A stretch of DNA of 44,726 nucleotides from a virus (Duplodnaviria > Heunggongvirae > Uroviricota > Caudoviricetes). The translations under genes and the position numbers were made by a program. The DNA lies in the IMG/VR virus record IMGVR_UViG_2802429225_000004; one strand, given 5' to 3'. Every line of letters begins with the position of its first letter. Positions within the stretch are counted from its first letter, which is position 1. The notes beneath the pieces were generated by a model. It worked only from the letters and a program-made list of their open reading frames with translations. It did not search any database and had not been told where the DNA came from. This document shows positions 3,977 to 17,629 of this stretch, one piece after another.

Positions 3977-4180
3977 TTACGGTGCTGCTTTAAGTCCTGC
4001 CGGGATTTCGTTATTGTCCATGCGAATAACTTTATCAACCGGATAACAGTTGCCGGGAATTTTCTGTTCCGCTGCGGCAGCCATGCATTCTTTCATTGAG
4101 TCATGTATACCAATAACAAGATCGACTGGTTCGCCTGTATTAAGAAAAACTGTCAGAACGAGTGCAAATGCTGTATTCAT
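3977..4180 (-). CDS. ydfD: YdfD-like small secreted/lysis protein (DUF1482-type)
   Basis: Internal Met start MNTAFALVLTVFL... gives about 67 aa with N-terminal hydrophobic segment; resembles remembered Qin prophage YdfD; directly downstream of dicB-like gene as in the dicB operon. Confidence 0.5.
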   Translation of the reverse strand: MNTAFALVLTVFLNTGEPVDLVIGIHDSMKECMAAAAEQKIPGNCYPVDKVIRMDNNEIPAGLKAAP

Positions 4181-4182
4181 TG

Positions 4183-4365
4183 TCAGCGTCCTTTTTGCAT
4201 CAGGCGTAAACGGGCCAGCATTGAAACAATGCATATTTGATTTAATAGCTCCCGTTCGTGTTTTCTCTTATTAATGGCATCTTCAGTAAATACAGGGTTA
4301 CTGATTCTGACACCAATTTCAAAACAACCTTCAGACGTATTGACGTTTGGTAATAACGTTTCCAT
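4183..4365 (-). CDS. dicB: DicB-like cell-division inhibitor
   Basis: 60-aa product METLLPNVNTSEGCFEIGV...SMLARLRLM closely resembles remembered E. coli DicB; GAGGA RBS upstream; follows DicF-like terminator hairpin. Confidence 0.6.
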   Translation of the reverse strand: METLLPNVNTSEGCFEIGVRISNPVFTEDAINKRKHERELLNQICIVSMLARLRLMQKGR

Positions 4366-4548
4366 TATCGCGTCCTCAACAATGAATTTTGTGATGCGGT
4401 GCCTGGTGCCTCCAGGTGACGTTAACCAGTTAATAATTAACGCCGGATACAGAGAACCCACCCATAAGAACCAATACGGAAGTCAACTGGCCTTTTTAAC
4501 TGTTCCGCGTGCGCTGAGCCGCATTCACCGCATCACAAAATTCACTTT

Positions 4549-4606
4549 AAAAAGGGCGGGTATCACGGGGAAAACAAAACGGATACCCGCCAAAAGGTAA
4601 TCAACA
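4549..4606 (-). ncRNA. dicF: DicF-like sRNA ending in a rho-independent terminator
   Basis: Minus-strand hairpin GGCGGGTATC...GATACCCGCC followed by TTTTT; downstream flank AAAGTGAATTTTGTGATG.GGTGAATGCGGCT.AGCGCACGCGGAACAG matches remembered dicF-dicB intergenic sequence of Qin prophage; 5' end not determinable. Confidence 0.5.
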
Positions 4607-4932
4607 TGGGTTGTTGTGGCGGGGTTGTCACTCAGGCGTATGGTCAACCTGACAACCCGGTGCCACTAATGGGGTAAGGATAACCCCGCCATACTTACCG
4701 CCGCGCCATTTCGCGGATTGCCACAACCGGAAGCGCACGGTCGAATTAAATTTAACGACACCGTACAGACAGAAGAACTTCGCCGTGCGCTTTCGCGTTA
4801 TGCCCTGACTTTTCAGGGATATATCCTTTCAGTAAACTGTCAGTGCCGGATTCTTATCCGTGTCCGGCGCACGACTACACGTGGCAGCGTGTTGGTCTCC
4901 ATTTTTAACCCAGAACCTCAATGGAGGATAAA

Positions 4933-5142
4933 ATGCCAAACAGACCAATACATCCGCTTATTGAAAAACAGATTGAATGTCTGGTTAATCAACTCAGGCA
5001 ATCAGGGTTATTAAAAAACCATTCAGAGTTAAGGCTCACGAAATCAGCATTTGACGATAAATTAAACAATGTGCTTTATAATGGCATCATTGATTACAAT
5101 CGTGGTGTTGGTCGTCGTGGCCCTGCTGGCACCGCCCTGTAA
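4933..5142 (+). CDS. Hypothetical 69-aa protein, antisense-oriented to the surrounding minus-strand operon
   Basis: ATG preceded by GGAGGA; stop abuts the convergent stop of the 212-aa minus-strand gene; no recognisable domain. Confidence 0.3.
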   Translation: MPNRPIHPLIEKQIECLVNQLRQSGLLKNHSELRLTKSAFDDKLNNVLYNGIIDYNRGVGRRGPAGTAL

Positions 5143-5781
5143 TTACCAGTCAATCCAGAGCGGATAGTGTTCAGCGTAAATATAGCTGTATACATCAAGG
5201 TTGTATTTGTGGTCTGCTTTTAACAGGTCACAAATACATGTTGCTGCTTCCAGGGCTGAAGCTCTGTTACTGAACATCCACGTCGCAACATTCCAGCTAT
5301 TCTCTGTATCCCATTCTTTCGCAAGAGTTGACACTCTGAAGGATCCGTTGGCGTTGCCATCAAATACTTCTGTTTCCAGGTTCTTAAGCAATGCCTGATG
5401 AACTTTTGTCAGGTATTCAGCCGGAATCTTGCCACGGATTCTGATGAGATTGTCATAAACAAACATATTTCCCGCGTATGGCGATTTTTCTTTCTTGTTT
5501 TTTAAACCAGCATCATGAGCAAACTGATCAATTTCTTCTTTCATTGGTTTCGTATTGATGTTTTGCGCTGTCGTTTCTGCAATTTTCTTTGCCACACTCT
5601 CTGAGTCGTGTTTATTTACAGACGAACAGAAATACAATCCGGTAAACGCATCGCGCACATTACGAGCCATATTATCAATGTCTTTCTTCGTTGCAGATTC
5701 TAATTCAACTTCGGACAGACGTTGACAAAGTGCATGCGCTGCAATCACCTTGATTTCTTTTGGTAACTCTTTAAATTCCAT
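5143..5781 (-). CDS. Hypothetical 212-aa protein in the ydfC slot of the dicB-type operon
   Basis: Long ORF, AT-rich relative to neighbours, tightly packed behind YdfB-like ORF; no motif recognised by eye. Confidence 0.6.
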   Translation of the reverse strand: MEFKELPKEIKVIAAHALCQRLSEVELESATKKDIDNMARNVRDAFTGLYFCSSVNKHDSESVAKKIAETTAQNINTKPMKEEIDQFAHDAGLKNKKEKSPYAGNMFVYDNLIRIRGKIPAEYLTKVHQALLKNLETEVFDGNANGSFRVSTLAKEWDTENSWNVATWMFSNRASALEAATCICDLLKADHKYNLDVYSYIYAEHYPLWIDW

Positions 5782-5792
5782 CTATAACCCCG

Positions 5793-5921
5793 TTAGTCGA
5801 TAGATTTTGCCGAACTGTAAAGCGCCTGTTTAAACTCACTGAAGCTGAGAGCTTCTTCGCCTTCGGCAAGGCCTTCGAAGTATTCTTCGTAAGCCTTTTC
5901 CATGATTGTGTCGAAATCCAT
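5793..5921 (-). CDS. ydfB: YdfB-like 42-aa acidic protein
   Basis: 42-codon ORF MDFDTIMEKAYEEYFEGLAEGEE... placed 1 nt after YdfA-like stop; below the 60-aa ORF-track cutoff, translated manually. Confidence 0.4.
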   Translation of the reverse strand: MDFDTIMEKAYEEYFEGLAEGEEALSFSEFKQALYSSAKSID

Positions 5922-5922
5922 A

Positions 5923-6078
5923 TCACTCACCTGAGTTTCTTTCCAGCCAGCGACGGGCACCATTTTCGGTTTTAAACATTTTGCTTTTGGTATACGTCAT
6001 CGCGGTGAACGTGCCGTCCTGGTTGGGAAACACGCCGTACACCAGAGATTCGTTGTTGCCAAGATCGATAGTATCCAT
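5923..6078 (-). CDS. ydfA: YdfA-like small protein (DUF1391-type)
   Basis: Internal Met start MDTIDLGNNESLVYGVFPNQDGTF... (51 aa) with GAGG RBS; first gene after the palindromic operator/promoter. Confidence 0.5.
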   Translation of the reverse strand: MDTIDLGNNESLVYGVFPNQDGTFTAMTYTKSKMFKTENGARRWLERNSGE

Positions 6079-6260
6079 GTTGACCTCATTTCCCCTTAAC
6101 GCCGGGGTAGCGGAACAAAAACCTGCTGCATAGTTAAAGTTGAACCCTGCCGTCATGTTCTTACGCCTCGGGCTGGCTACTTAACCCCTGACCACTGCCT
6201 GGTAACTCGAAGTATTGCCCTGCATTCTGTGGGGCGGGGTGGGTTGGTAAAAATAATCTA

Positions 6261-6297
6261 CAATTAAAAACTGTTTTGTGTCAACAGTTTTTAATTG
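6261..6297. promoter_or_regulatory. Perfect 15-bp inverted repeat operator (CAATTAAAAACTGTT-N7-AACAGTTTTTAATTG) in the promoter region of the dicB-type operon
   Basis: Read directly from sequence; related half-sites AAAACTGT/ACAGTTTT recur in the repressor/cro divergent region. Confidence 0.5.
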
Positions 6298-6304
6298 TTG
6301 TCTT

Positions 6305-6334
6305 AGACAAAAAAACTCCCTCGAATGAGGGAGT
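6305..6334 (-). terminator. Rho-independent terminator ending the repressor-antitoxin-toxin operon
   Basis: Hairpin ACTCCCTC-GAAT-GAGGGAGT followed on the minus strand by T-tract; 17 nt after the ParE-like stop. Confidence 0.55.
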
Positions 6335-6350
6335 ATGGAAATTGTTCGGC

Positions 6351-6638
6351 TCAGATAGAGAAGGGAAATTGTCGACGGGCATGCACAATATTCGCAATTT
6401 CAATGCTTGAAGTTGCTACTCGGTACAACACGATATAATTAGGGTGAACCACAAGTTCCCGCAAACCGGATACTCGATCACTTAGCGGATATAGATATGG
6501 GTGCTCAGAGAGGGTTAAAACAGACGTTTCAATACGTATTTTTAGTCTGCGTGCTGCAGGAATGTTTTCCTTAGCAATATAGGTTACGACCTGACGCAAA
6601 TCATCGCGAGCAGATGGTAGCCATAAAATGGGTAACAT
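6351..6638 (-). CDS. RelE/ParE-family toxin (ParE2-like)
   Basis: 95-aa ORF with conserved RelE/ParE core pattern (...YIVLYRV...IEIANIVHARR); start overlaps stop of upstream small antitoxin ORF. Confidence 0.6.
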   Translation of the reverse strand: MLPILWLPSARDDLRQVVTYIAKENIPAARRLKIRIETSVLTLSEHPYLYPLSDRVSGLRELVVHPNYIVLYRVATSSIEIANIVHARRQFPFSI

Positions 6639-6829
6639 TACTCGCTCCTGTTAGTTGCAGCAATTTGAGCAATAAGATTTTCCATTTCAGCCATTACCTC
6701 GTCATGTGGAATTGCGGGGCGAGGGTCTGCAAGGCTTAACGTCACTTTAGCGCGCAACCATTCGTTGTAACTGTTTTCTTGTTCGGTAGTTTCGAATTCT
6801 GAAACTATCGGAGAAAGGGCTGTACTCAT
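6638..6829 (-). CDS. Small antitoxin (PaaA2-like) paired with ParE-family toxin
   Basis: 63-aa acidic ORF directly upstream of and overlapping the toxin gene; size and position match the PaaR2-PaaA2-ParE2 arrangement of O157 prophages. Confidence 0.5.
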   Translation of the reverse strand: MSTALSPIVSEFETTEQENSYNEWLRAKVTLSLADPRPAIPHDEVMAEMENLIAQIAATNRSE

Positions 6830-6856
6830 GGCATAACTCCTCTTCTTGTACAGTGG

Positions 6857-7258
6857 TCACGCCCGGCGGCTTTTTTGTGCCGCCAACCATCGGGCAATAG
6901 TTTCTTCCATTGATTTTTTCTTGTCTTTGATTTCTTGAAGCATTTTTTCTTGGTCTTCCTCTGGAAACGCACTAAAAGCTTGGAGCAGTTCGCGTTGGCG
7001 AGGACCAATTTTCATTGTGTCAGGGGTGAAAATTTGCTCCCCCTCATCAGGAGGCAATAAAAACCAATGCAATGGATGCCCTGTAACCTCAACCAGTTTA
7101 TCCAAACTTGAGGCTTTAGGCGTAGCCTTACCGCTGACCCATTGTTGAACTGTTTGTTGTGTCACACCAATTCTACGGGCAAGTTCAGCCTGGCTCCATC
7201 CAGTTTCCTGAAGAAGCTTGCTGATTCTGTACATAGATACTTCTAGGGCGTTCATCAT
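6857..7258 (-). CDS. HTH_XRE repressor (cI/DicA/PaaR2-like), probable prophage immunity repressor
   Basis: 133-aa ORF with HTH ISKLLQETGWSQAELARRIGVTQQTVQQW; divergent from cro-like gene; palindromic operators nearby. Confidence 0.75.
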   Translation of the reverse strand: MMNALEVSMYRISKLLQETGWSQAELARRIGVTQQTVQQWVSGKATPKASSLDKLVEVTGHPLHWFLLPPDEGEQIFTPDTMKIGPRQRELLQAFSAFPEEDQEKMLQEIKDKKKSMEETIARWLAAQKSRRA

Positions 7259-7366
7259 TATTCAATTTTACAGGTAAATACTGTTAAAAGCATCACAATA
7301 AAAAACTGTTGATTGCGTACAGTTTTTTATTGTAGGCTTTGTTTATAGTTTTCAGAGGAGGGCAAA
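7259..7366. promoter_or_regulatory. Divergent repressor/cro promoter-operator region
   Basis: Intergenic region between divergent HTH genes containing AAAAACTGTTGATTGCGTACAGTTTTTT inverted repeat similar to the 6261-6297 operator. Confidence 0.5.
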
Positions 7367-7639
7367 ATGCTAGATAGCACTCGCGAAAAAATTAGGCAGA
7401 AATACACTCAAGCTGAAATAGGTCGCTATATGGGGGTCGCTCAACAGACCGTTTGGCAATGGTTTAGCTTTGGCGTTCCCCCAAAGCAGGTAATTCCGTT
7501 ATGCCAGTTAATGAAGTGGGAAGTTACCCCGCATGAAATTCGCCCTGACATTTATCCCAACCCAACAGATGGACTACCTTGTGGAAATAAGTGTATGTCG
7601 AATGAATCACTGGCGGTGAACAATGATATTCACTCCTGA
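7367..7639 (+). CDS. Cro/YdaS-like small HTH regulator
   Basis: 90-aa ORF, strong RBS GAGGAGGG, HTH-like EIGRYMGVAQQTVWQW; divergent from repressor. Confidence 0.6.
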   Translation: MLDSTREKIRQKYTQAEIGRYMGVAQQTVWQWFSFGVPPKQVIPLCQLMKWEVTPHEIRPDIYPNPTDGLPCGNKCMSNESLAVNNDIHS

Positions 7640-8174
7640 GCAGGCTCGCGAGGCTCTGGATGCCTGGGTATGTCGACCAGGAATGACGCAGGAGCAGGCG
7701 ACGATATTAATCACAGAGGCATTCTGGACTCTGAAAGAACGCCCGAACATCGATGTTCAACGTGTCACATTTGATGATGGCGCGGTTGATCAACGGGCGC
7801 TTGGCGTTAACAGAGTGAAGATATTCGAACGCTGGAAAGCTATTGACACCAGGGATAAGCGTGAAAAATTCACGGCGTTGATTCCGGCAATTATGGAGGC
7901 TATCCGGATCAGTGATTTCAGGTTGTATTGTGAAATTACTGACGGAAAAAGCATTACGTACATGATCGCCGGGTTAAACAAAGAATATGGCGATGTGGTG
8001 GAGTCCGGGCTGCTTTTTGCGGATCCCGCTGTTGTGGAACGTGAGACTGACGAGCTTATAGAAAAAGCTATTGCTTTCAAGCATGCGTATCGTCAGCAAT
8101 ACCAACATTATTTTGCAGATAAACAAATGTCTGTCTGGGGTTCGTATGAGTATCGATGCACTACGATGGGCTAA
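7623..8174 (+). CDS. Hypothetical early protein (CII/YdaT position)
   Basis: 183-aa ORF overlapping cro-like stop; no motif recognised. Confidence 0.4.
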   Translation: MIFTPEQAREALDAWVCRPGMTQEQATILITEAFWTLKERPNIDVQRVTFDDGAVDQRALGVNRVKIFERWKAIDTRDKREKFTALIPAIMEAIRISDFRLYCEITDGKSITYMIAGLNKEYGDVVESGLLFADPAVVERETDELIEKAIAFKHAYRQQYQHYFADKQMSVWGSYEYRCTTMG

Positions 8175-9186
8175 AAAGGTGAAAACCGGCAGTTCATCCA
8201 GTAAGTCAGTATTGACCTGGCTTGCTGATATGTGCGGTGCCGATTTGTGTGCATACCCGTCTGTATCTGCCCTGGCAGAAGTAACGGAACTGAACAAAAA
8301 GACTGTGCAGGACAGCTTACGACACCTGATGGAGATTGGGTTAATTGTTGATACCGGTGAGAGAAAAGGCAGAACAAAGCAAATTGTGGTGTACCGACTT
8401 ATCGGTGTAGAAGAAAGTGTTGCCGAGCCTGAATACACCCAAAAACGGGAGTCTTTAAAGGTGGGTAAAATTGGTGCTGTTAATAAAAACAGTACCGAAA
8501 ATGGTTATGTTTCAGCACAAAACAGCCCCAAAAACGGAACTCTTAACTGCATGGAAAATAACCAAAGACACCCAAATTTTCCATCAAAGACACCCAAAAA
8601 CGGATCACGGAACCCAAAGGAACCCAAAGATCTAACCCCCACACATAACGCACGCGAGAGTGCTCCGACCAGTGAGCAGGAAGTTTTGTCGTTACAGGCA
8701 GCACCCCCTGTATTCCTGGATGGCCTGAGCGAACCCATCGGAAAATTTCCGATGACCGATAGCTGGTATCCGTCACGGGATTTTCGACGACGGGCTGCGT
8801 TGTGGGGGATGGCTTTGCCGGAGACAGAATTTACACCTGCTGAACTTGCCGCCTTCCGGGACTACTGGGCAGCGGAGGGGAAAGTATTTACGCAGATTCA
8901 GTGGGAGCAGAAATTCGCCCGTCACGTAAATCACGTCAGGGCGCAGGTTAAACCAGTCAGCAAGGGGGTAAACCATGCAGCAACGCCAGGTGGCACCGCA
9001 TCACGGGCAGTTCAGGAAATTCGGGCAGCACGTGAGCAGTGGGAACGTGAAAACGGATTTATCCGCGACGGAAACGGCGTGGAAGTTGTGGGAACTCATG
9101 GGGGAGGTTTATTCGAACCGCTGGACCCAGAAGAACGGGGCCGCACCTTCGAAGCTCTGGATTGCACAGATTGGCGCGATGACTGA
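8146..9186 (+). CDS. Replication initiation protein (O-like, N-terminal HTH)
   Basis: ORF with N-terminal winged-helix-like segment MSIDALRWAKKV...; position after cro/cII region; start chosen at internal ATG, true start uncertain. Confidence 0.55.
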   Translation: MSIDALRWAKKVKTGSSSSKSVLTWLADMCGADLCAYPSVSALAEVTELNKKTVQDSLRHLMEIGLIVDTGERKGRTKQIVVYRLIGVEESVAEPEYTQKRESLKVGKIGAVNKNSTENGYVSAQNSPKNGTLNCMENNQRHPNFPSKTPKNGSRNPKEPKDLTPTHNARESAPTSEQEVLSLQAAPPVFLDGLSEPIGKFPMTDSWYPSRDFRRRAALWGMALPETEFTPAELAAFRDYWAAEGKVFTQIQWEQKFARHVNHVRAQVKPVSKGVNHAATPGGTASRAVQEIRAAREQWERENGFIRDGNGVEVVGTHGGGLFEPLDPEERGRTFEALDCTDWRDD

Positions 9187-9640
9187 GCAGCAAATCCGGC
9201 AGGTCTGCCGCCAGTGCATGGATCGCTGCCGGGCGGGTGAAACATGGCCTCCGGACCTGGCTGAGTTTGTGGCGCTGATTTTGGAGAGTGGGGCAAATCC
9301 ATTTGGTCTGACGGTGGATGCTGTGATGGAGGAGTACCGCCGCTGGCGCAATGAGTCCTGGCGATACGACGGAAGCGATAAATATCCGTGGCCTCAGCCT
9401 GTGCTGTATCACATTTGTCTCGAGATGCGTTCAAAGGGGATTGAGCGGCAGATGACCGAAGGGGAGTTAAAACGGCTTGCAGAACGGCAACTGACGAAAT
9501 GGGCAAAGCATGTTAGTAACGGCCTGAGCGTTCCGCCAGTCCGGCGACAACTGGCGGCACCCAAACGCCCGTCGGGGCCAACACCAATTGAGTTGCTGAA
9601 ACGGGAGTATGAACGCCGGAAGGCAGCTGGTTTTGTATGA
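9098..9640 (+). CDS. Replication protein P-like (helicase loader family)
   Basis: Central region resembles remembered lambda P segment; overlaps O-like gene end; start codon ambiguous (ORF opens at 8975, alternative ATG at 9179). Confidence 0.45.
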   Translation: MGEVYSNRWTQKNGAAPSKLWIAQIGAMTEQQIRQVCRQCMDRCRAGETWPPDLAEFVALILESGANPFGLTVDAVMEEYRRWRNESWRYDGSDKYPWPQPVLYHICLEMRSKGIERQMTEGELKRLAERQLTKWAKHVSNGLSVPPVRRQLAAPKRPSGPTPIELLKREYERRKAAGFV

Positions 9641-10065
9641 ATTGTGAAGGTGATTTTTCAGGAGGGCTTGTGGCAAAAGTTTTTACACCCGAACAGCGGG
9701 AAGAGCTGAAGGCACGAATTATCGGGTTGGTACGCAAAAATGAACGCATGACGATGTCGCAACTGGAGAGAGCGACGGGAGCTGGCTGGCATTCGGTCCG
9801 ACGCTGCCTTGTGGATGTACTGGCTTGTGGTGATTTATACATGTCCGGGGAATACGGTGTTTTTGCATCAGAGCAGGCGTATCGTGAATGGCGTAAGACA
9901 CCGGAGAAAACAACTGACCAGACACTGATTCGAAAGTTACCAGACGGAGAAATACGCCGCTACGACAGACATCTGAACATAATCTGTCGCGAGTGCCGGA
10001 AGAGCGAAGCTATGCAGCGTGTACTGGCTTTCTATCAGGGTAATTTTCAGGAGGCGGTACTGTGA
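9637..10065 (+). CDS. Hypothetical protein
   Basis: 142-aa ORF with ATGA overlap to upstream gene. Confidence 0.4.
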   Translation: MNCEGDFSGGLVAKVFTPEQREELKARIIGLVRKNERMTMSQLERATGAGWHSVRRCLVDVLACGDLYMSGEYGVFASEQAYREWRKTPEKTTDQTLIRKLPDGEIRRYDRHLNIICRECRKSEAMQRVLAFYQGNFQEAVL

Positions 10066-10122
10066 GTGAAATTAGCTATCAGGTTTCAATTACCGCTGGC
10101 ATTCGCATCAAAGGAGAGGAGC

Positions 10123-10479
10123 ATGGAAATAAAACCAGAAGATGAGTTAAGCAATATCGTTTTATTTCCGGTAAAAGAGGATGACCCACGTAATCAAGTT
10201 AATTTTCTTTATGAGCCATCGGAAAGACCATATTGCCATCACGCCTCTGTCCGGGTTGACGAAAAAGAGCGTCAGGTCCGCTGTAAAATCTGCGGTGCAG
10301 TTGTGGAGCCATTTGACTGGATGCTCTCTGTGGCTAAAAGAGAAACCAGGCTGGCAGATGATGTAAGGTTATTGCGCCAGGAGGAACAGGAACGGCGGAA
10401 AAATATAGAAAAGCTAATTCAGATTGAGCGTAACGCGAAAGTGCGGATACGCAGGGCGACAAAATCAAGAACTGAATAA
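10123..10479 (+). CDS. Hypothetical protein with CHH...CxxC zinc-ribbon-like motif
   Basis: Internal ATG with AAGGAGAGGA RBS; 118 aa. Confidence 0.4.
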   Translation: MEIKPEDELSNIVLFPVKEDDPRNQVNFLYEPSERPYCHHASVRVDEKERQVRCKICGAVVEPFDWMLSVAKRETRLADDVRLLRQEEQERRKNIEKLIQIERNAKVRIRRATKSRTE

Positions 10480-10641
10480 TTAAATTTAGCACTGTTAAAA
10501 ATTTAATCCTTAACCGGAGGGATTCCTGCACCCTCAGAACATCAGGAGGCCGCCCGAAAGGGCGGTAATAAAAATGGCAGAATTAACTAAAGAATGGTTG
10601 CAACAAACAATTACTGATATTCAGGTCAGTTGAGGTGAGAA

Positions 10642-10812
10642 ATGCGAATGGAAAATTGTTTATTGCCGTATCTGGTGCGGTTTTGGGCGTCGTCATTAAC
10701 AGTTATTCCACATGTCATGATGGCTGACAATATTATCCCGGCACCAAAGCGCCATACCGGTATTGCAGCGGCACGACGTGCAGCAAAGAAACGCAGGAGA
10801 TCAAAGCGATGA
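10642..10812 (+). CDS. Small hypothetical protein (56 aa)
   Basis: Manually translated small ORF in AT-rich moron segment; overlaps next ORF start. Confidence 0.25.
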   Translation: MRMENCLLPYLVRFWASSLTVIPHVMMADNIIPAPKRHTGIAAARRAAKKRRRSKR

Positions 10813-11006
10813 AAAACCGTAAAGCAAAACTGCTTACTGCAAAGCCCGGGCAGCTTATCCGCATCTCAAATCGACTTGTTGTTCGTTATGCGCCTTCTGG
10901 CCTTGCCAGGTGGTTACCAACGCATTTTTACAGTGTCAGGCGACGTAGAAGTGCGGCACAAAACCGCTGGAGAAATCACGGTTCTAAGCAAATTAAATGG
11001 GAGTGA
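10809..11006 (+). CDS. Small basic hypothetical protein (65 aa)
   Basis: ORF-track ORF; Arg-rich C-terminus. Confidence 0.3.
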   Translation: MKNRKAKLLTAKPGQLIRISNRLVVRYAPSGLARWLPTHFYSVRRRRSAAQNRWRNHGSKQIKWE

Positions 11007-11007
11007 T

Positions 11008-11226
11008 ATGACTACACTATTCAGGAAAAATTATCCGCGAAAGAGCAGAGCAACAGAATTCCTGTTTCTCATTCTGTTTATCGTGTTGATGATACCGATA
11101 TCCCCGTTAATTCTGGTATGGGGAATCGGCAAAATAATTGAGCCAGTTATTGAATTGTATAACGACGTGGTATGGGCGTCGTTCAACACACTACACAATA
11201 AAATTAATCCATATAAGGAAAACTGA
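11008..11226 (+). CDS. Small membrane protein (72 aa)
   Basis: Internal ATG with RBS; strongly hydrophobic segment FLFLILFIVLMIPISPLILVWGIG. Confidence 0.4.
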   Translation: MTTLFRKNYPRKSRATEFLFLILFIVLMIPISPLILVWGIGKIIEPVIELYNDVVWASFNTLHNKINPYKEN

Positions 11227-11227
11227 A

Positions 11228-11665
11228 ATGACTGAATTAACCAAAGAACAATTAATCGAAGAAGCTAAATTAAAAATAGCGATTGCGAAATGCCACCCAA
11301 ATTCAGGGATGGCACAGGTAGAGGGTGAGTTATTCAAAATTGCACTGGCATCGCTGGAAGCAGAGCCGGTGGCATGGAAGGTGACTTTCACTCGAATTGA
11401 CAATGAGTTTGATACGTTTACGGTTACGTATTCTGACAAAGCAGAAGTTGAACAGTATGTGCGATTGTATGAGACGTGTGGTCTTCGGGCAGATATAACA
11501 CCGCTTTATACAGCCCAACCAGCGCCGGTAGCTCCAGATGGTTGGATAAGCTGTAGTGATGCAGTTCCTGCGGAATACTGCGATGTGATTCTTCGCGATG
11601 ATCTCGGGAATGTATTCCCCGGTTCCTGGGATAAGGTTTTTTTGCCCCATTCGTGGCGGGAATAA
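11228..11665 (+). CDS. Hypothetical protein (possibly DUF551-like)
   Basis: 145-aa product from internal ATG MTELTKEQ...; a following 29-codon ORF (11666-11755) ends in HWMPLPEPP, a tail motif I associate with DUF551 proteins. Confidence 0.4.
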   Translation: MTELTKEQLIEEAKLKIAIAKCHPNSGMAQVEGELFKIALASLEAEPVAWKVTFTRIDNEFDTFTVTYSDKAEVEQYVRLYETCGLRADITPLYTAQPAPVAPDGWISCSDAVPAEYCDVILRDDLGNVFPGSWDKVFLPHSWRE

Positions 11666-11949
11666 GATGGCTTTTGTGGACAAAGACGGCATCGAAGTAG
11701 AGAGCTCAACTCACTGGATGCCGCTACCGGAACCACCGCAGGAGGTGAATCAATGACCTGGCCTGAGGCATTCACCACGGTAGGAATTGCACTGGCGGTG
11801 GCGCTGGTGGTGTATTCGATTTGCCGCTGGGGATAAAAACGATTTGCGGGAAAAGGATAGTTAAGTAGAATGGCTGCGGGTGCTTGAGGCTATCTGTCTC
11901 AGGCATGAACACCAACGGCAGATAGAGAAAAGCCCCAGTTAACATTACG

Positions 11950-12020
11950 CGTCCTGCAAGACGCTTAACATTAATCTGAGGCCATATCTATGACTTGCAC
12001 ACGTAGGTTAGCCTCTTACG
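11950..12020 (-). ncRNA. Putative Sok-type antisense RNA region of the hok locus
   Basis: Inferred from the canonical hok/mok/sok organisation only; boundaries not resolvable from sequence. Confidence 0.25.
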
Positions 12021-12046
12021 TGCCGAAAGGCAAGGAGAAGCAGGCT

Positions 12047-12202
12047 ATGAAGCAGCAAAAGGCGATGTTAATCGCCCTGATCGTCATCTGTTTAACCGTC
12101 ATAGTGACGGCACTGGTAACGAGGAAAGACCTCTGCGAGGTACGAATCCGAACCGGCCAGACGGAGGTCGCTGTCTTCACAGCTTACGAACCTGAGGAGT
12201 AA
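12047..12202 (+). CDS. hok: Hok-family type I toxin (HokD/RelF-like); overlapping mok frame begins at 11990
   Basis: 51-aa product MKQQKAMLIALIVICLTVIVTALVTRKDLCEVRIRTGQTEVAVFTAYEPEE is a hallmark Hok sequence; upstream overlapping reading frame as in mok. Confidence 0.85.
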   Translation: MKQQKAMLIALIVICLTVIVTALVTRKDLCEVRIRTGQTEVAVFTAYEPEE

Positions 12203-12430
12203 GAGACCCGGCGGGGGAGAAATCCCTCGCCACCCCTGATGTGTCAGGCATCCTCAACGCACCCACACTTAACCTTACTAGCAAGTGGCTTTAATATTAT
12301 TGTAACATTTTCATGCTCGCATGTGTTTTCTGTTGTTATGAATTAGGTACAGGGTTCTTATGCTTCTTTATTGCGATGAGCTTGCAACTGATTGTTAGTT
12401 GCTATTGGTGGGGGAAGGGATATACTTTAA

Positions 12431-12679
12431 ATGAGCAAAAAAGAGAAGTTGAGGTGGCGTCTGAATCAGCTTCCAAAGGATTTTACATGGGATGAACTCG
12501 TGACGTTGCTTGGGCATTATGGTTTCGAAATGCTTACCGGTTCAGGCTCAAGAAGGAAGTTTACCAATGCTAATGGAAGGCTTGTGGCTTTTCATTGCCC
12601 ACATCCTGGCAATATTGTTAAAGGATATGTGCTTAAAGAAGTGAAAAATCTTTTGGATGAGATTGATAGTTATGAGTAA
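12431..12679 (+). CDS. hicA: HicA-family toxin (YcfA-like mRNA interferase)
   Basis: Pattern GSGSRRKF...GRLVAFHCPHPGNIVKGYVLKEVKNLL matches HicA/YcfA family. Confidence 0.7.
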   Translation: MSKKEKLRWRLNQLPKDFTWDELVTLLGHYGFEMLTGSGSRRKFTNANGRLVAFHCPHPGNIVKGYVLKEVKNLLDEIDSYE

Positions 12680-13148
12680 TGTGCTGAGTTATAAAGGTTA
12701 TTTTGGCAGCATTGAGGTTTCACTTGAAGATAACATACTTCATGGGAAAATTCAGTGCGTAAACGATGTTGTAACCTACGAAGCGGAAACACTGGATGGG
12801 TTAAGGGCGGCTTTTGAAGAAGCTGTTACAGATTATCTCGACACATGCAAGCAGTTAGGGAAATCTCCTGATAAACCAATGAGTGGTACTTTTAACATCA
12901 GAATTGGTCGCGATCTTCATAAGAAAGCGTTTTTGGCTGCAATGGCGGATAAGACGACGCTTAATGATTATGTGCGTAAAGCTATCGAAGAAAAGATTGC
13001 TGACAAAAAAGAAGTTCATTCTCATTCGGAAAGCGAAGAAACGACAGATACATTCGTTTGGGAAAAAGCATTCTCTTTTGGTTATGTCATTTCCCCTTCA
13101 GCAAGAACAAAAAAGAAAGAGGCTGGTGAGCGATGGATGCGTCACTGA
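12672..13148 (+). CDS. hicB: HicB-family antitoxin with about 50-aa C-terminal extension
   Basis: N-terminal HicB-like fold segment plus ribbon-helix-helix-like GTFNIRIGRDLHKKAFLAAMADKTTLNDYVRKAIEEKI; start overlaps hicA stop (ATGAGTAA). Confidence 0.65.
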   Translation: MSNVLSYKGYFGSIEVSLEDNILHGKIQCVNDVVTYEAETLDGLRAAFEEAVTDYLDTCKQLGKSPDKPMSGTFNIRIGRDLHKKAFLAAMADKTTLNDYVRKAIEEKIADKKEVHSHSESEETTDTFVWEKAFSFGYVISPSARTKKKEAGERWMRH

Positions 13149-13561
13149 TGTTACAAAATATTAAGTATGCTGGTTTCGATATTGTTTCCAGTAGTTTCAA
13201 GGATAACACTAGTGATGATGGAGGGTTTTTTAAGGTCTCGATCGAGGAAGTTAAATTTTCTTCGGGGCGCGATGATGATGGTACTTGTTGGTTCCGGATT
13301 GGATTTTCGCCATCGATAAAAGGGTATCCCGATAGAGATGGTGCCGGGGATGAAGAACCCTCTTTTGAGCTAAAGATGGAGCTGATTACGGACTTTGATA
13401 TCATGAATGGAGAGTTGATCGATGAAAAATTCTTTGTGAAAAATTCATGGTATTTTGAGAATTTCATGTCGTTGACGTTAAAATTGGCGGTGGACTCTGT
13501 TCTTAAGCACACGTCGTTAAGCGATATTTATTTCCCCTGGTATTCGCCGGACTCAGCTTAA
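13148..13561 (+). CDS. Hypothetical acidic protein translationally coupled to hicB
   Basis: ATG overlaps hicB TGA by 1 nt (TGATG); 137 aa, D/E-rich, no recognisable domain. Confidence 0.45.
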   Translation: MLQNIKYAGFDIVSSSFKDNTSDDGGFFKVSIEEVKFSSGRDDDGTCWFRIGFSPSIKGYPDRDGAGDEEPSFELKMELITDFDIMNGELIDEKFFVKNSWYFENFMSLTLKLAVDSVLKHTSLSDIYFPWYSPDSA

Positions 13562-13666: not shown

Positions 13667-13939
13667 ATGGCGCACAAGACCAAATTACACAATTCTGATA
13701 CCGATCGTGCCAGCAGGCACGATCGGCGTTCTCATGCATTCAAATATGACTGGTACCAGCATGACCCATGCACTGCAGAACAGGCCGAATGGCTGATTCA
13801 TAACTACCGCAGACGTGGATACGAGATTAAGAAAGCCCTCAGCCTCGATTATCGTCACTGGATAATCTACGTCAGGCTGCCGTACTCCGAGCGCCCACCG
13901 CGTCCGTCCCGCACATTCCAGCAACGCATCTGGAGGTAA
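13667..13939 (+). CDS. Hypothetical protein
   Basis: Internal ATG of 120-aa track ORF; about 90 aa. Confidence 0.35.
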   Translation: MAHKTKLHNSDTDRASRHDRRSHAFKYDWYQHDPCTAEQAEWLIHNYRRRGYEIKKALSLDYRHWIIYVRLPYSERPPRPSRTFQQRIWR

Positions 13940-16379: not shown

Positions 16380-16455
<76 letters not shown>

Positions 16456-16458
16456 TAT

Positions 16459-16533
<75 letters not shown>

Positions 16534-16827: not shown

Positions 16828-17203
16828 TTCCTGCATCAAACAAAAAAATACACGAGCATCCTGGAATACTCGTGGGACAAAGTCCTTTAGATAGCAATTT
16901 GCGAGAGGGTGAAAAAATGGCGCGGCTGTCGGATTAAAGCCGCGGGACAAAGTCCATGAAGAATAATAAGTATCAGCCTCCTACAGGAGACGAGTTGATA
17001 TTACTAAGCTTTAAAAATGGTTTAAATCCTCAGATTAACCTTAATTTCAGGTAAGTCTTATTTCATTTCTTCGCGCCGCGCCCGGCGCACATCAAAAACC
17101 ACAGAGCCTTTCAGGGGTGAGCTTACGGGATGGTCAGTGTGACTTTCTCTGTGGGCTGGTCACCCTCCGGGCGCAGGCTCACCCACTAAAAGGAAAAGTC
17201 ACG

Positions 17204-17629
17204 ATGTTTGGTATTTTCAAAAAGAAAACCCGCAAGGCCATTACTGAAGTAAAGAAAATGGAGAACCGCGATGCAGTGGAGGCGACCGTCTGGGGCGCGT
17301 ATTCCATTGCATACGCTGACGGCACCTGTGACGCGAAAGAAATCGCGGTGCTGGAGAAAACCATTGCAGCACTTCCTGCTTTTGCGCCGTTCTCCGGTGA
17401 GATTGCACAAATGAGTGCAAATATCCGCGCCCGTTATGAAGCGTCGCCGCGCTCTGCCAATGCTGAAGCCCTTCGTCAGTTGGCTGACGTGGCAGGAACA
17501 GACGATGCAGTTAATGTGCTGTGCCTGTGTCTGGATATCGCTGACCAGGATGGCATTGGTCCGGATGAAGAAGCACAGCTCAAGAAAATTGCTCAGGCGC
17601 TTCAGCTACCGCTGGAGCAGTACCTGTGA
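17204..17629 (+). CDS. TerB-like (tellurite-resistance TerB fold) small protein; moron between Q and lysis genes
   Basis: ATG with AAAGGAAAAG RBS; about 141 aa with TerB-like paired-helix pattern (AYADGTCDAKEIAVLEK...DIADQDGIGPDEEAQLKKIA). Confidence 0.5.
   Translation: MFGIFKKKTRKAITEVKKMENRDAVEATVWGAYSIAYADGTCDAKEIAVLEKTIAALPAFAPFSGEIAQMSANIRARYEASPRSANAEALRQLADVAGTDDAVNVLCLCLDIADQDGIGPDEEAQLKKIAQALQLPLEQYL

Follow-up and report, generated by a model that had tools for sequence, protein, structure and literature searches.

Does a crowd of host-toxic genes within about 9 kb of a prophage mean that selection has gathered them there? The question arises from positions 3977–13148 of a viral sequence, the IMG/VR record IMGVR_UViG_2802429225_000004, whose whole stretch of 44,726 nt is referred to here as the window. 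A first-pass annotation had reported in this segment a ParE-family toxin with its antitoxin, Hok, HicA, DicB, a DicF-like small RNA (sRNA) and a YdfD-like lysis protein, and had taken their density to be unusual and to suggest strong selection for prophage maintenance or for an abortive-infection-like defence of the lysogen. We find that the segment is very probably the early region (immunity, replication and nin) of a mosaic lambdoid prophage of the Qin/CP-933P/PPompW type, with each ‘toxic’ element sitting in its customary slot and the co-occurrence brought about by modular recombination, not by any special selection.

We annotated the window from a listing of its open reading frames (ORFs) combined with Pfam, NCBIfam, PHROG, PADLOC and Rfam family scans. 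It is prophage from end to end, in segments that are 97–99.7% identical to various E. coli genomes, so that its host is E. coli or a very near relative, and it looks like a complete 44.7-kb phage, with an integrase, replication genes, Q, lysis genes, terminase-size ORFs and genes of a tail-fibre region. Every element reported earlier is found where it had been placed, and almost all were correctly identified, the DicF-like sRNA being the exception as to identity. The elements are as follows.

3977–4180, minus strand: ydfD-like gene (DUF1482, 67 aa); Pfam DUF1482, 80 bits; 73% identical to K-12 YdfD over its full length.
4183–4365, minus strand: dicB (60 aa), of the cell-division inhibitor family; Pfam PF05358, 125.3 bits (cut-off 27).
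4549–4618, minus strand: element in the DicF slot, here called allele B, with a 5′ arm CACAACAACCCAUGUUGAUUACCUUUU, a 10-bp stem GGCGGGUAUC/GAUACCCGCC and a U5 tail.
6351–6638, minus strand: parE-family toxin gene (95 aa) of the ParE2 type; Pfam ParE_toxin, 54.8 bits.
6638–6829, minus strand: paaA2-type antitoxin gene (63 aa), without a DNA-binding domain; Pfam PaaA2, 75.8 bits; NCBIfam NF050103, 93.6 bits.
11878–12265, plus strand: apparently complete type I hok/mok/sok locus, its hok mRNA bearing tac at the 5′ end and fbi at the 3′ end, with the mok ORF at 11990–12202 and the hok ORF (51 aa) at 12047–12202; Rfam RF01794 and Pfam HOK_GEF.
12431–12679, plus strand: hicA-family gene (82 aa) with Arg41 at the position of the canonical catalytic His; Pfam HicA_toxin, 39.7 bits (cut-off 27); phrog_8887, ‘toxin’.
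12657–13148, plus strand: hicB-family antitoxin gene (163 aa); Pfam HicB, 63.8 bits (cut-off 21); annotated as HicB in 12 E. coli genomes.

The first-pass annotation had allowed that most of these ORFs might prove disrupted; all of the toxin and antitoxin ORFs are full length, with neither truncation nor frameshift relative to their homologues. From the left end, the gene order is int (1–1131), exonuclease, ydfD, dicB, the immunity region, O/P-like replication genes, the nin region, DUF968, RusA, Q and tRNAs. The minus strand, read from right to left, carries the repressor, PaaA2, ParE, a terminator, an operator/promoter, the ydfA/ydfB-like genes, a 212-aa ORF, the DicF-slot hairpin, dicB, the ydfD-like gene, the exonuclease and the integrase. 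On the plus strand lie ydaS/ydaT-like genes, the O-like (with a DnaT domain) and P genes, DUF977, DUF4014, a frameshifted DUF551, hok/mok/sok, hicA, hicB, DUF968, RusA, Q and two tRNAs.

Is such a density out of the ordinary? In K-12 Qin, hokD, relBE, dicF, dicB and ydfD lie within 4.9 kb. We took matches at regular intervals along the ranked list of all dicB–ydfD matches and fetched four of them; all four carry int, the exonuclease, ydfD, dicB, a canonical DicF, ydfC/ydfB/DUF1391-type genes in varying combinations, the repressor, cro, ydaT, replication genes, hokD and DUF968, followed by RusA and Q where the fetched stretch extends that far. One of them, the O157-type L087, packs DicF, DicB, YdfD, ParE/PaaA2 (a RelB-type antitoxin) and HokD, that is five modules, into 7.8 kb. 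The hicAB-bearing prophages that were fetched likewise have ydfD, dicB and hokD (4/4), with an extra PemK/MazF-family toxin after Q in two of them; that of strain PSS-15 combines YdfD, DicB, ParE, HokD and HicAB with the MazF-like toxin and is denser than the window, and that of E. coli SC407 agrees with the window in its set of modules but has another replication module. Density equal to or higher than that of the window is therefore met in Qin, in the evenly sampled prophages and in the hicAB-bearing relatives, and the claim of an unusual density does not hold. Concerning the additional toxin, the PemK/MazF-family gene lies just after Q, at 13930–14274 of L090 (E. coli TUM1881) and at 13872–14273 of L093 (PSS-15); no antitoxin is annotated beside it and the window has no counterpart there.

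The same picture emerges from prevalence, which we followed in 5,426 complete E. coli genomes and in 52 DicB loci from IMG/VR with at least 9 kb upstream. The dicB–ydfD pair is present in 3,977 of the genomes (73%). A hok/hicAB query matched 4,938 genomes, hok being the widespread part, and hok and hicAB occur together in 12 genomes only; the repressor–PaaA2–ParE allele of the window is found in 507 (about 9%). Among the IMG/VR loci, YdfD stands beside dicB in 52/52, Hok lies within 10 kb in 35, ParE in six and HicAB in one, and this sole hicAB locus (L007) matches the window at 99.98% identity. Phages of this type therefore carry four of the six elements by default and ParE as a common option, hicAB being the only rare moron among them.

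Some observations weigh against this reading. The exact six-part combination is rare: besides the IMG/VR twin, ParE, hok and hicAB were found in one prophage in SC407, Z1323CEC0009, Z1323CEC0016 and PSS-15. A ParE allele of one kind or another accompanies hicAB in at least four of the 12 prophages; two of these belong to a single series of chicken isolates, and a baseline was measured for the common allele only. These co-occurrence figures are rough and the numbers small; they give, without a formal test, no clear sign of anything beyond an independent assortment of modules, and at the present sample sizes the modules may be under weak co-selection. Moreover, the window HicA is devoid of the canonical catalytic His and the DicF-slot element of predicted ftsZ pairing, so that two of the six ‘toxic’ modules may not be toxic.

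Which of these modules would be active in a lysogen? The immunity region contains the following features.

6255–6298, minus strand: left operator and promoter (OL/PL), with the operator ACAATTAAAAACTGTT-N7-AACAGTTTTTAATTGT over a TTGACA-N18-TAGATT promoter directed towards the ydfA-like gene; inverted repeat and direct repeat shared with the right operator (OR), hexamers read from the sequence.
6309–6333, minus strand: intrinsic terminator CTCCCTC-ATTC-GAGGGAG-T7 at the end of the repressor–antitoxin–toxin operon, read from the sequence.
6857–7258, minus strand: paaR2/dicA-like helix-turn-helix repressor (133 aa, without a peptidase domain), the predicted functional cI analogue; Pfam HTH_3, 50.5 bits.
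7295–7333, no strand assigned: OR, with the operator ACAATAAAAAACTGT-N9-ACAGTTTTTTATTGT between the repressor and the cro-like genes; inverted repeat, 78% identical to the OL copy.
7367–8174, plus strand: ydaS-like (Cro analogue, 7367–7639) and ydaT-like (CII analogue, 7623–8174) genes; Pfam YdaS_toxin, 38.9 bits, and YdaT_toxin, 26.3 bits.

The repressor gene is the first of a three-gene operon that diverges from ydaS–ydaT and in which the antitoxin stop overlaps the parE start at 6638. The toxin aligns with O157 ParE2 (PDB entry 5cw7_B; E = 1.5e-36) over residues 1–93, and the antitoxin with PaaA2 (PDB entry 3zbe; E = 2.9e-22). The OL palindrome covers 39 nt (6260–6298) between parE and the ydfA-like gene, and the repressor is predicted to bind both the OL and the OR palindromes. 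In CP-933P, PL is repressed by PaaR2 and YdaS, with PaaR2 acting as CI (PMC8630535), and the OL/PL layout of the window also fits the DicA/dicBp logic in Qin (PMC10448788).

From homology to K-12 Qin and O157 CP-933P we infer how the modules are expressed and what each toxin does. The repressor, PaaA2 and ParE would form a three-component toxin–antitoxin (TA) system as in CP-933P, in a position corresponding to that of lambda rexAB; PaaA2–ParE, co-transcribed with the repressor, would be expressed in the lysogen and serve as an addiction module for the immunity region. For the homologous paaR2–paaA2–parE2 locus of O157, toxicity and its neutralization by the antitoxin have been shown; that locus is addictive, stabilizes an unstable plasmid and has been proposed to stabilize the immunity region against recombination (PMC8630535). 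By analogy with this O157 homologue, PaaA2–ParE is the sole module here with published evidence of addiction. It should be noted that we also considered YdaS and YdaT as extra toxins, and dropped them on the published evidence from CP-933P, where they are Cro and CII analogues and not a TA pair (PMC8630535, PMC9986795); the Pfam ‘YdaS/YdaT toxin’ labels are misleading.

Beyond PL, the operon that ends with dicB and ydfD contains, or is interrupted by, three further features.

4933–5142, plus strand: 69-aa ORF (phrog_4274; PHROG E = 5.9e-43) with a strong Shine–Dalgarno sequence, inserted relative to K-12 Qin.
5143–5781, minus strand: 212-aa ORF of the PL operon (phrog_2151; PHROG E = 1.4e-119).
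5793–6156, minus strand: ydfA-like gene (DUF1391) and ydfB-like small ORF, the first genes of the PL operon; Pfam DUF1391, 93.8 bits; phrog_751 and phrog_2061.

The true start of the ydfA-like gene is probably at 6078, and the two first genes follow each other as ydfA–ydfB do in K-12. At the other end of the operon, the ydfD-like start codon comes 2 nt after the dicB stop; the YdfD-like protein has the N-terminal hydrophobic AFxLVLTVFL segment of K-12 YdfD, and DicB matches NCBIfam NF049927 with 126.5 bits (cut-off 100) and is 90% identical to K-12 DicB over its full length. Bound to OR and OL, the PaaR2/DicA-like repressor would shut the whole leftward early operon (the ydfA-like and ydfB-like genes, the 212-aa ORF, the DicF slot, dicB and ydfD) in the lysogen. 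Because the PL operon sits behind an operator/promoter that is duplicated at OR, the DicF-slot RNA, DicB and YdfD are predicted to be repressed in this state, and would act on induction or stochastic derepression as early-lytic host-takeover functions. Once expressed, DicB would block division, by the MinC-dependent inhibition of FtsZ ring assembly that defines its family, and YdfD would cause lysis, the DicF-slot hairpin reducing read-through into dicB. These three are thus predicted, by analogy, to be early-lytic takeover genes and not post-segregational killers.

Relative to K-12 Qin, the 69-aa and 212-aa ORFs form a convergent pair inserted in the PL operon. The 69-aa ORF belongs to a 781-nt stretch upstream of dicB, and a place covering at least 80% of this stretch was found in 596 of the 5,426 E. 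coli genomes; its equivalents in relatives are annotated as hypothetical proteins. Pfam, NCBIfam and PADLOC scans returned no match for the 212-aa ORF.

The hok and hicAB modules lie outside this operon, and would be self-contained, autonomous morons of the nin region. In other prophages, the slot after hok is filled by rem or by small hypothetical genes. One further feature belongs to the hok locus.

11935–12033, minus strand: putative Sok antisense RNA gene behind a promoter-like TTGCCT-N17-TAACCT (pattern match), whose predicted transcript crosses the mok Shine–Dalgarno sequence and start codon.

The sok/hok leader model RF01794 matches over positions 1–157, its full length, with 109.5 bits (cut-off 59), and Hok matches Pfam HOK_GEF with 81.6 bits. 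In the minimum free energy fold of the 389-nt hok transcript, nucleotides 1–12 pair with nucleotides 375–387, as a tac–fbi fold-back. The Sok promoter-like pattern is not among the promoters listed by a consensus scan, and the ends given for Sok are inferred ones. With its 51-aa Hok, an in-frame upstream mok of 70 codons, the tac/fbi fold-back and an antisense promoter-like pattern over the mok start, the locus resembles the hok/sok of plasmid R1 and the chromosomal hok loci, but unlike that of R1 it lies in a prophage nin region and not on a plasmid. The hok coding sequence and 3′ region are 100% identical at the nucleotide level to K-12 hokD. However, K-12 hokD gives no RF01794 match: the leader that is whole in the window is absent there.

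The hicAB pair has hicA first, with hicB overlapping it at 12657–12679. This order and overlap, both Pfam domains and an invariant HP motif are shared with known HicAB systems (K-12 hicAB; Thermus thermophilus TTHA1913, PDB entry 1WHZ). The window HicA, which is 22% identical to that of K-12, differs from these by its 82-aa length with a conserved N-terminal extension and by an Arg in place of the His of G-S-H. In alignments with 1WHZ and 14 homologues, GS-R-RKF stands in the place of the GSH of HicA. Most of the subfamily members that were aligned have this Arg, among them all those annotated as enterobacterial; three have Gly, and His is seen only in the most distant (Gallionella, P0028). 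The protein is also as long as its homologues from other Enterobacterales. A substitution that most members share points to purifying selection rather than decay, and the subfamily may work by another mechanism, or may lack RNase activity. In a sequence search of the PDB, neither HicA nor HicB had a significant match, and HicA had no relative at E < 0.1.

A 142-aa ORF (phrog_19522; 13133–13561, plus strand), without match in Pfam or PADLOC, overlaps the end of hicB by 16 nt. An ORF of about 140 aa overlaps or abuts hicB in six of six related prophages (SC407, TUM1881, Z1323CEC0017, TUM9812, PSS-15 and the twin L007, the latter counted through its 99.98% identity to the window), and may be the third gene of a hicAB cassette.

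What, then, occupies the DicF slot? The first-pass annotation of a DicF-like sRNA is borne out only as to the syntenic position, the flanks and the base of the terminator, and is otherwise not confirmed; the Rfam DicF match and the predicted ftsZ pairing are both absent. The slot lies between conserved flanks (ydfC-like genes and dicB), as that of DicF does, and these flanks are highly conserved with K-12; its stem base is likewise GGCGG...CCGCCC followed by a U-run. The RNA body, however, is replaced in the alignment by another hairpin and another 5′ arm, with a fold energy of −19.7 kcal/mol: the arm does not have the UUUCUGGUGAC seed, nor the loop the ACUCCG anti-ribosome-binding-site sequence. 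The Rfam DicF model (RF00039) found nothing at its gathering score (48 bits) and nothing at E ≤ 10, either over 3.5 kb or over 201 nt, whereas the identical tool, as a positive control, gave 76.7 bits for the canonical DicF in K-12 and in two other prophages. The residues of DicF that pair with ftsZ have been placed in its 3′ part (PMC5069750). As RNAduplex, used without accessibility, yielded long nonspecific duplexes in which DicF could not be separated from shuffled sequences, we used RNAcofold ΔΔG values instead. With the ftsZ translation start, K-12 DicF gives −9.3 kcal/mol, its loop lying on the ribosome-binding site (GGAG), and allele B gives −4.1 kcal/mol with no predicted pairing to that site. 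Judging from its sequence, allele B is a positional homologue only and not a canonical DicF, and reads as an intrinsic terminator inside the operon ahead of dicB; it is possible that it is processed into an sRNA.

The window is not alone in this respect. Extraction of the slot from 76 DicB-bearing loci gave 22 distinct sequences in three to four allele classes: about 27 loci have the canonical DicF, about 28 have type B, that of the window, about 20 have type C and one has type D. All share the GGCGG/CCGCCC stem base and the U-run, and Rfam recognizes the canonical DicF alone. In types B and C the 5′ arm is largely conserved, with CCAUGUUGAUUACCUUUU in most variants, and there is mostly no predicted ftsZ pairing; among the type C variants, C2 is an exception, its 5′ arm giving a predicted pairing with ftsZ at −10.2 kcal/mol. 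We may wonder whether alleles B and C are uncharacterized sRNAs of prophages, matured from the PL transcript as DicF is and regulating host targets other than ftsZ, an idea that we put forward tentatively and consider less probable than its opposite. If it were true, the ‘DicF-like’ element of the window would be a different regulator and not a division inhibitor. The Rfam DicF model misses about two-thirds of the slot alleles in the phage contigs sampled; any account of the prophages with a DicF-type RNA ahead of dicB that relies on the canonical sequence is therefore probably incomplete.

We also examined an AgvB-like anti-GcvB sponge. The sequence CACAACAAC at 4611–4619 (minus strand), just 5′ of the hairpin, fits the GcvB R1 target consensus (PMC4104026), and a long form of the DicF-slot RNA cofolds with GcvB R1 at −9.7 kcal/mol. 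We rejected this reading: AgvB is located at the PR′ moron site and not in the DicF slot; most sister alleles have TGCAACAAC or TACAACAAC in place of CACAACAAC, and the match is probably coincidental; and, by analogy with DicF processing, CACAACAAC would fall upstream of the mature 5′ end. DicF/dicB entries and a match to the allele-B hairpin were sought in the supplements of Tree et al. (2014) and not found. Finally, the spacer between the DicF-slot terminator and dicB (4388–4542, minus strand), which is highly conserved with K-12 Qin, has a sub-threshold match to STnc100, a Salmonella sRNA family (33.5 bits against a cut-off of 47; E = 8e-5); apart from this, Rfam at permissive thresholds returned noise only.

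Elsewhere in the window, the DUF551 gene (11228–11756, plus strand) is split over frames 2 and 3 according to tblastn, with a break between 11593 and 11610, and is probably a frameshifted pseudogene; that of E. coli PSS-15 is likewise annotated as frameshifted. Downstream of Q, the stretches 16380–16533 and 17117–17629 (plus strand) hold tRNA-Thr(UGU), tRNA-Gly(UCC) and, after these, a TerB-domain moron; the holin and endolysin genes come next. The same tRNA pair is present in a related prophage of E. coli TUM9812.

Can selection for maintenance or defence still be read from the cluster? Such roles are plausible for individual modules, for some of which they have been published (PMC8630535, PMC6832061). 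The step from concentration to selection is the part that does not stand, as the cluster is the default layout and half of its elements are predicted to be repressed early-lytic genes. Post-segregational killers (PaaA2–ParE, hok/sok and HicAB) could have accumulated as an adaptive ‘maintenance island’, and the plasmid stabilization by paaR2–paaA2–parE2, with its proposed shielding of the immunity region from recombination (PMC8630535), would fit, as would a hok locus that, unlike K-12 hokD, has every structural element for post-segregational killing. ParE in at least four of 12 hicAB prophages is also somewhat above the genome frequency of about 9% for the common allele, but this excess rests on three to four genomes, two of them from the chicken-isolate series, and mixes two ParE alleles with one baseline. 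Moreover, hok is nearly universal in this phage type whatever other TA modules are present, DicB, YdfD and the DicF-slot RNA lie behind the repressed PL promoter and are not addiction modules, and Jurenas et al. found no ParE2 activity in either transcriptional state. We consider such a stacking of addiction modules quite unlikely.

A joint action of the modules as abortive infection or superinfection exclusion on behalf of the lysogen is also unlikely, although several facts make it worth weighing. Abortive-infection activity is often reported for TA loci of types I and II, and PaaA2–ParE sits in the lysogen-expressed cI operon, where lambda has rexAB. DicB gives resistance to some phages, those using ManYZ or FhuA-dependent entry (PMC6832061). 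This protection, however, needs dicB expression, and the OL/PL layout predicts dicB to be off in most lysogens. A PADLOC scan of ten proteins was, besides, essentially negative, with no defence model beyond generic helix-turn-helix matches on the repressor and a weak AbiEii match on HicB (E = 0.0028). As for a decaying cryptic prophage whose toxins would be mostly nonfunctional relics, kept because the loss of an antidote is lethal, the nearby frameshifted DUF551, the lost catalytic His of HicA and the lost ftsZ complementarity of the DicF slot could be cited in its favour. It is nevertheless very improbable: the toxin and antitoxin ORFs are all full length, the Arg of HicA is common to most aligned members of the subfamily and to all annotated enterobacterial ones, which argues for purifying selection, and the window is an apparently complete phage of 44.7 kb. 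The early region of a mosaic lambdoid prophage, assembled by modular recombination, is the reading that we retain.

How does this region compare with the two best-known prophages of its type? With CP-933P (Sp12 of O157:H7) it shares the succession of a regulator, an antitoxin without DNA-binding domain and ParE, divergent from ydaS–ydaT and upstream of replication genes, as well as a second PL/OL set beyond parE and a repressor without peptidase domain. It differs in that its ParE is about two-thirds and its PaaA2 about three-quarters identical to the crystallized O157 proteins (by eye from the alignments), and in that its regulator is a distinct allele, 55–66% identical by tblastn to the regulator found beside more divergent alleles in L071 and L081 (ParE 66–68% and PaaA2 75–77% identical). 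With such a distinct regulator, the operators of the window presumably define a different immunity. In the complete E. coli genomes, the allele of the window was the more frequent one (507 genomes).

With K-12 Qin, the region shares the order repressor, ydfA-like gene, DicF slot, dicB and ydfD, the close similarity of DicB (90%) and YdfD (73%), a hok coding sequence that is 100% identical, the flanks of the DicF slot and a comparable density. The differences are the following: ParE/PaaA2 lies inside the repressor operon of the window, whereas RelBE of Qin is next to hokD; the hok leader with mok and the putative sok is intact in the window and lost from Qin hokD; HicAB follows hok, the DicF slot holds another allele and the PL operon has extra genes (the 212-aa and 69-aa ORFs); the repressors differ in specificity, K-12 DicA being 28% identical by tblastn at the repressor position of L007, the twin of the window; and the window is apparently a complete phage, whereas Qin is a remnant. 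The architecture is already known and mosaic, DicB, YdfD, Hok, ParE2 and HicA had been catalogued earlier, and near-identical sequences are public. For annotation, the lesson is that several ‘toxin’ names close together in the early region of a lambdoid prophage are no reason to call it exceptional. The region is a routine member of the commonest lambdoid prophage architecture in E. coli, with two regulatory circuits that have already been dissected experimentally in Qin and CP-933P.

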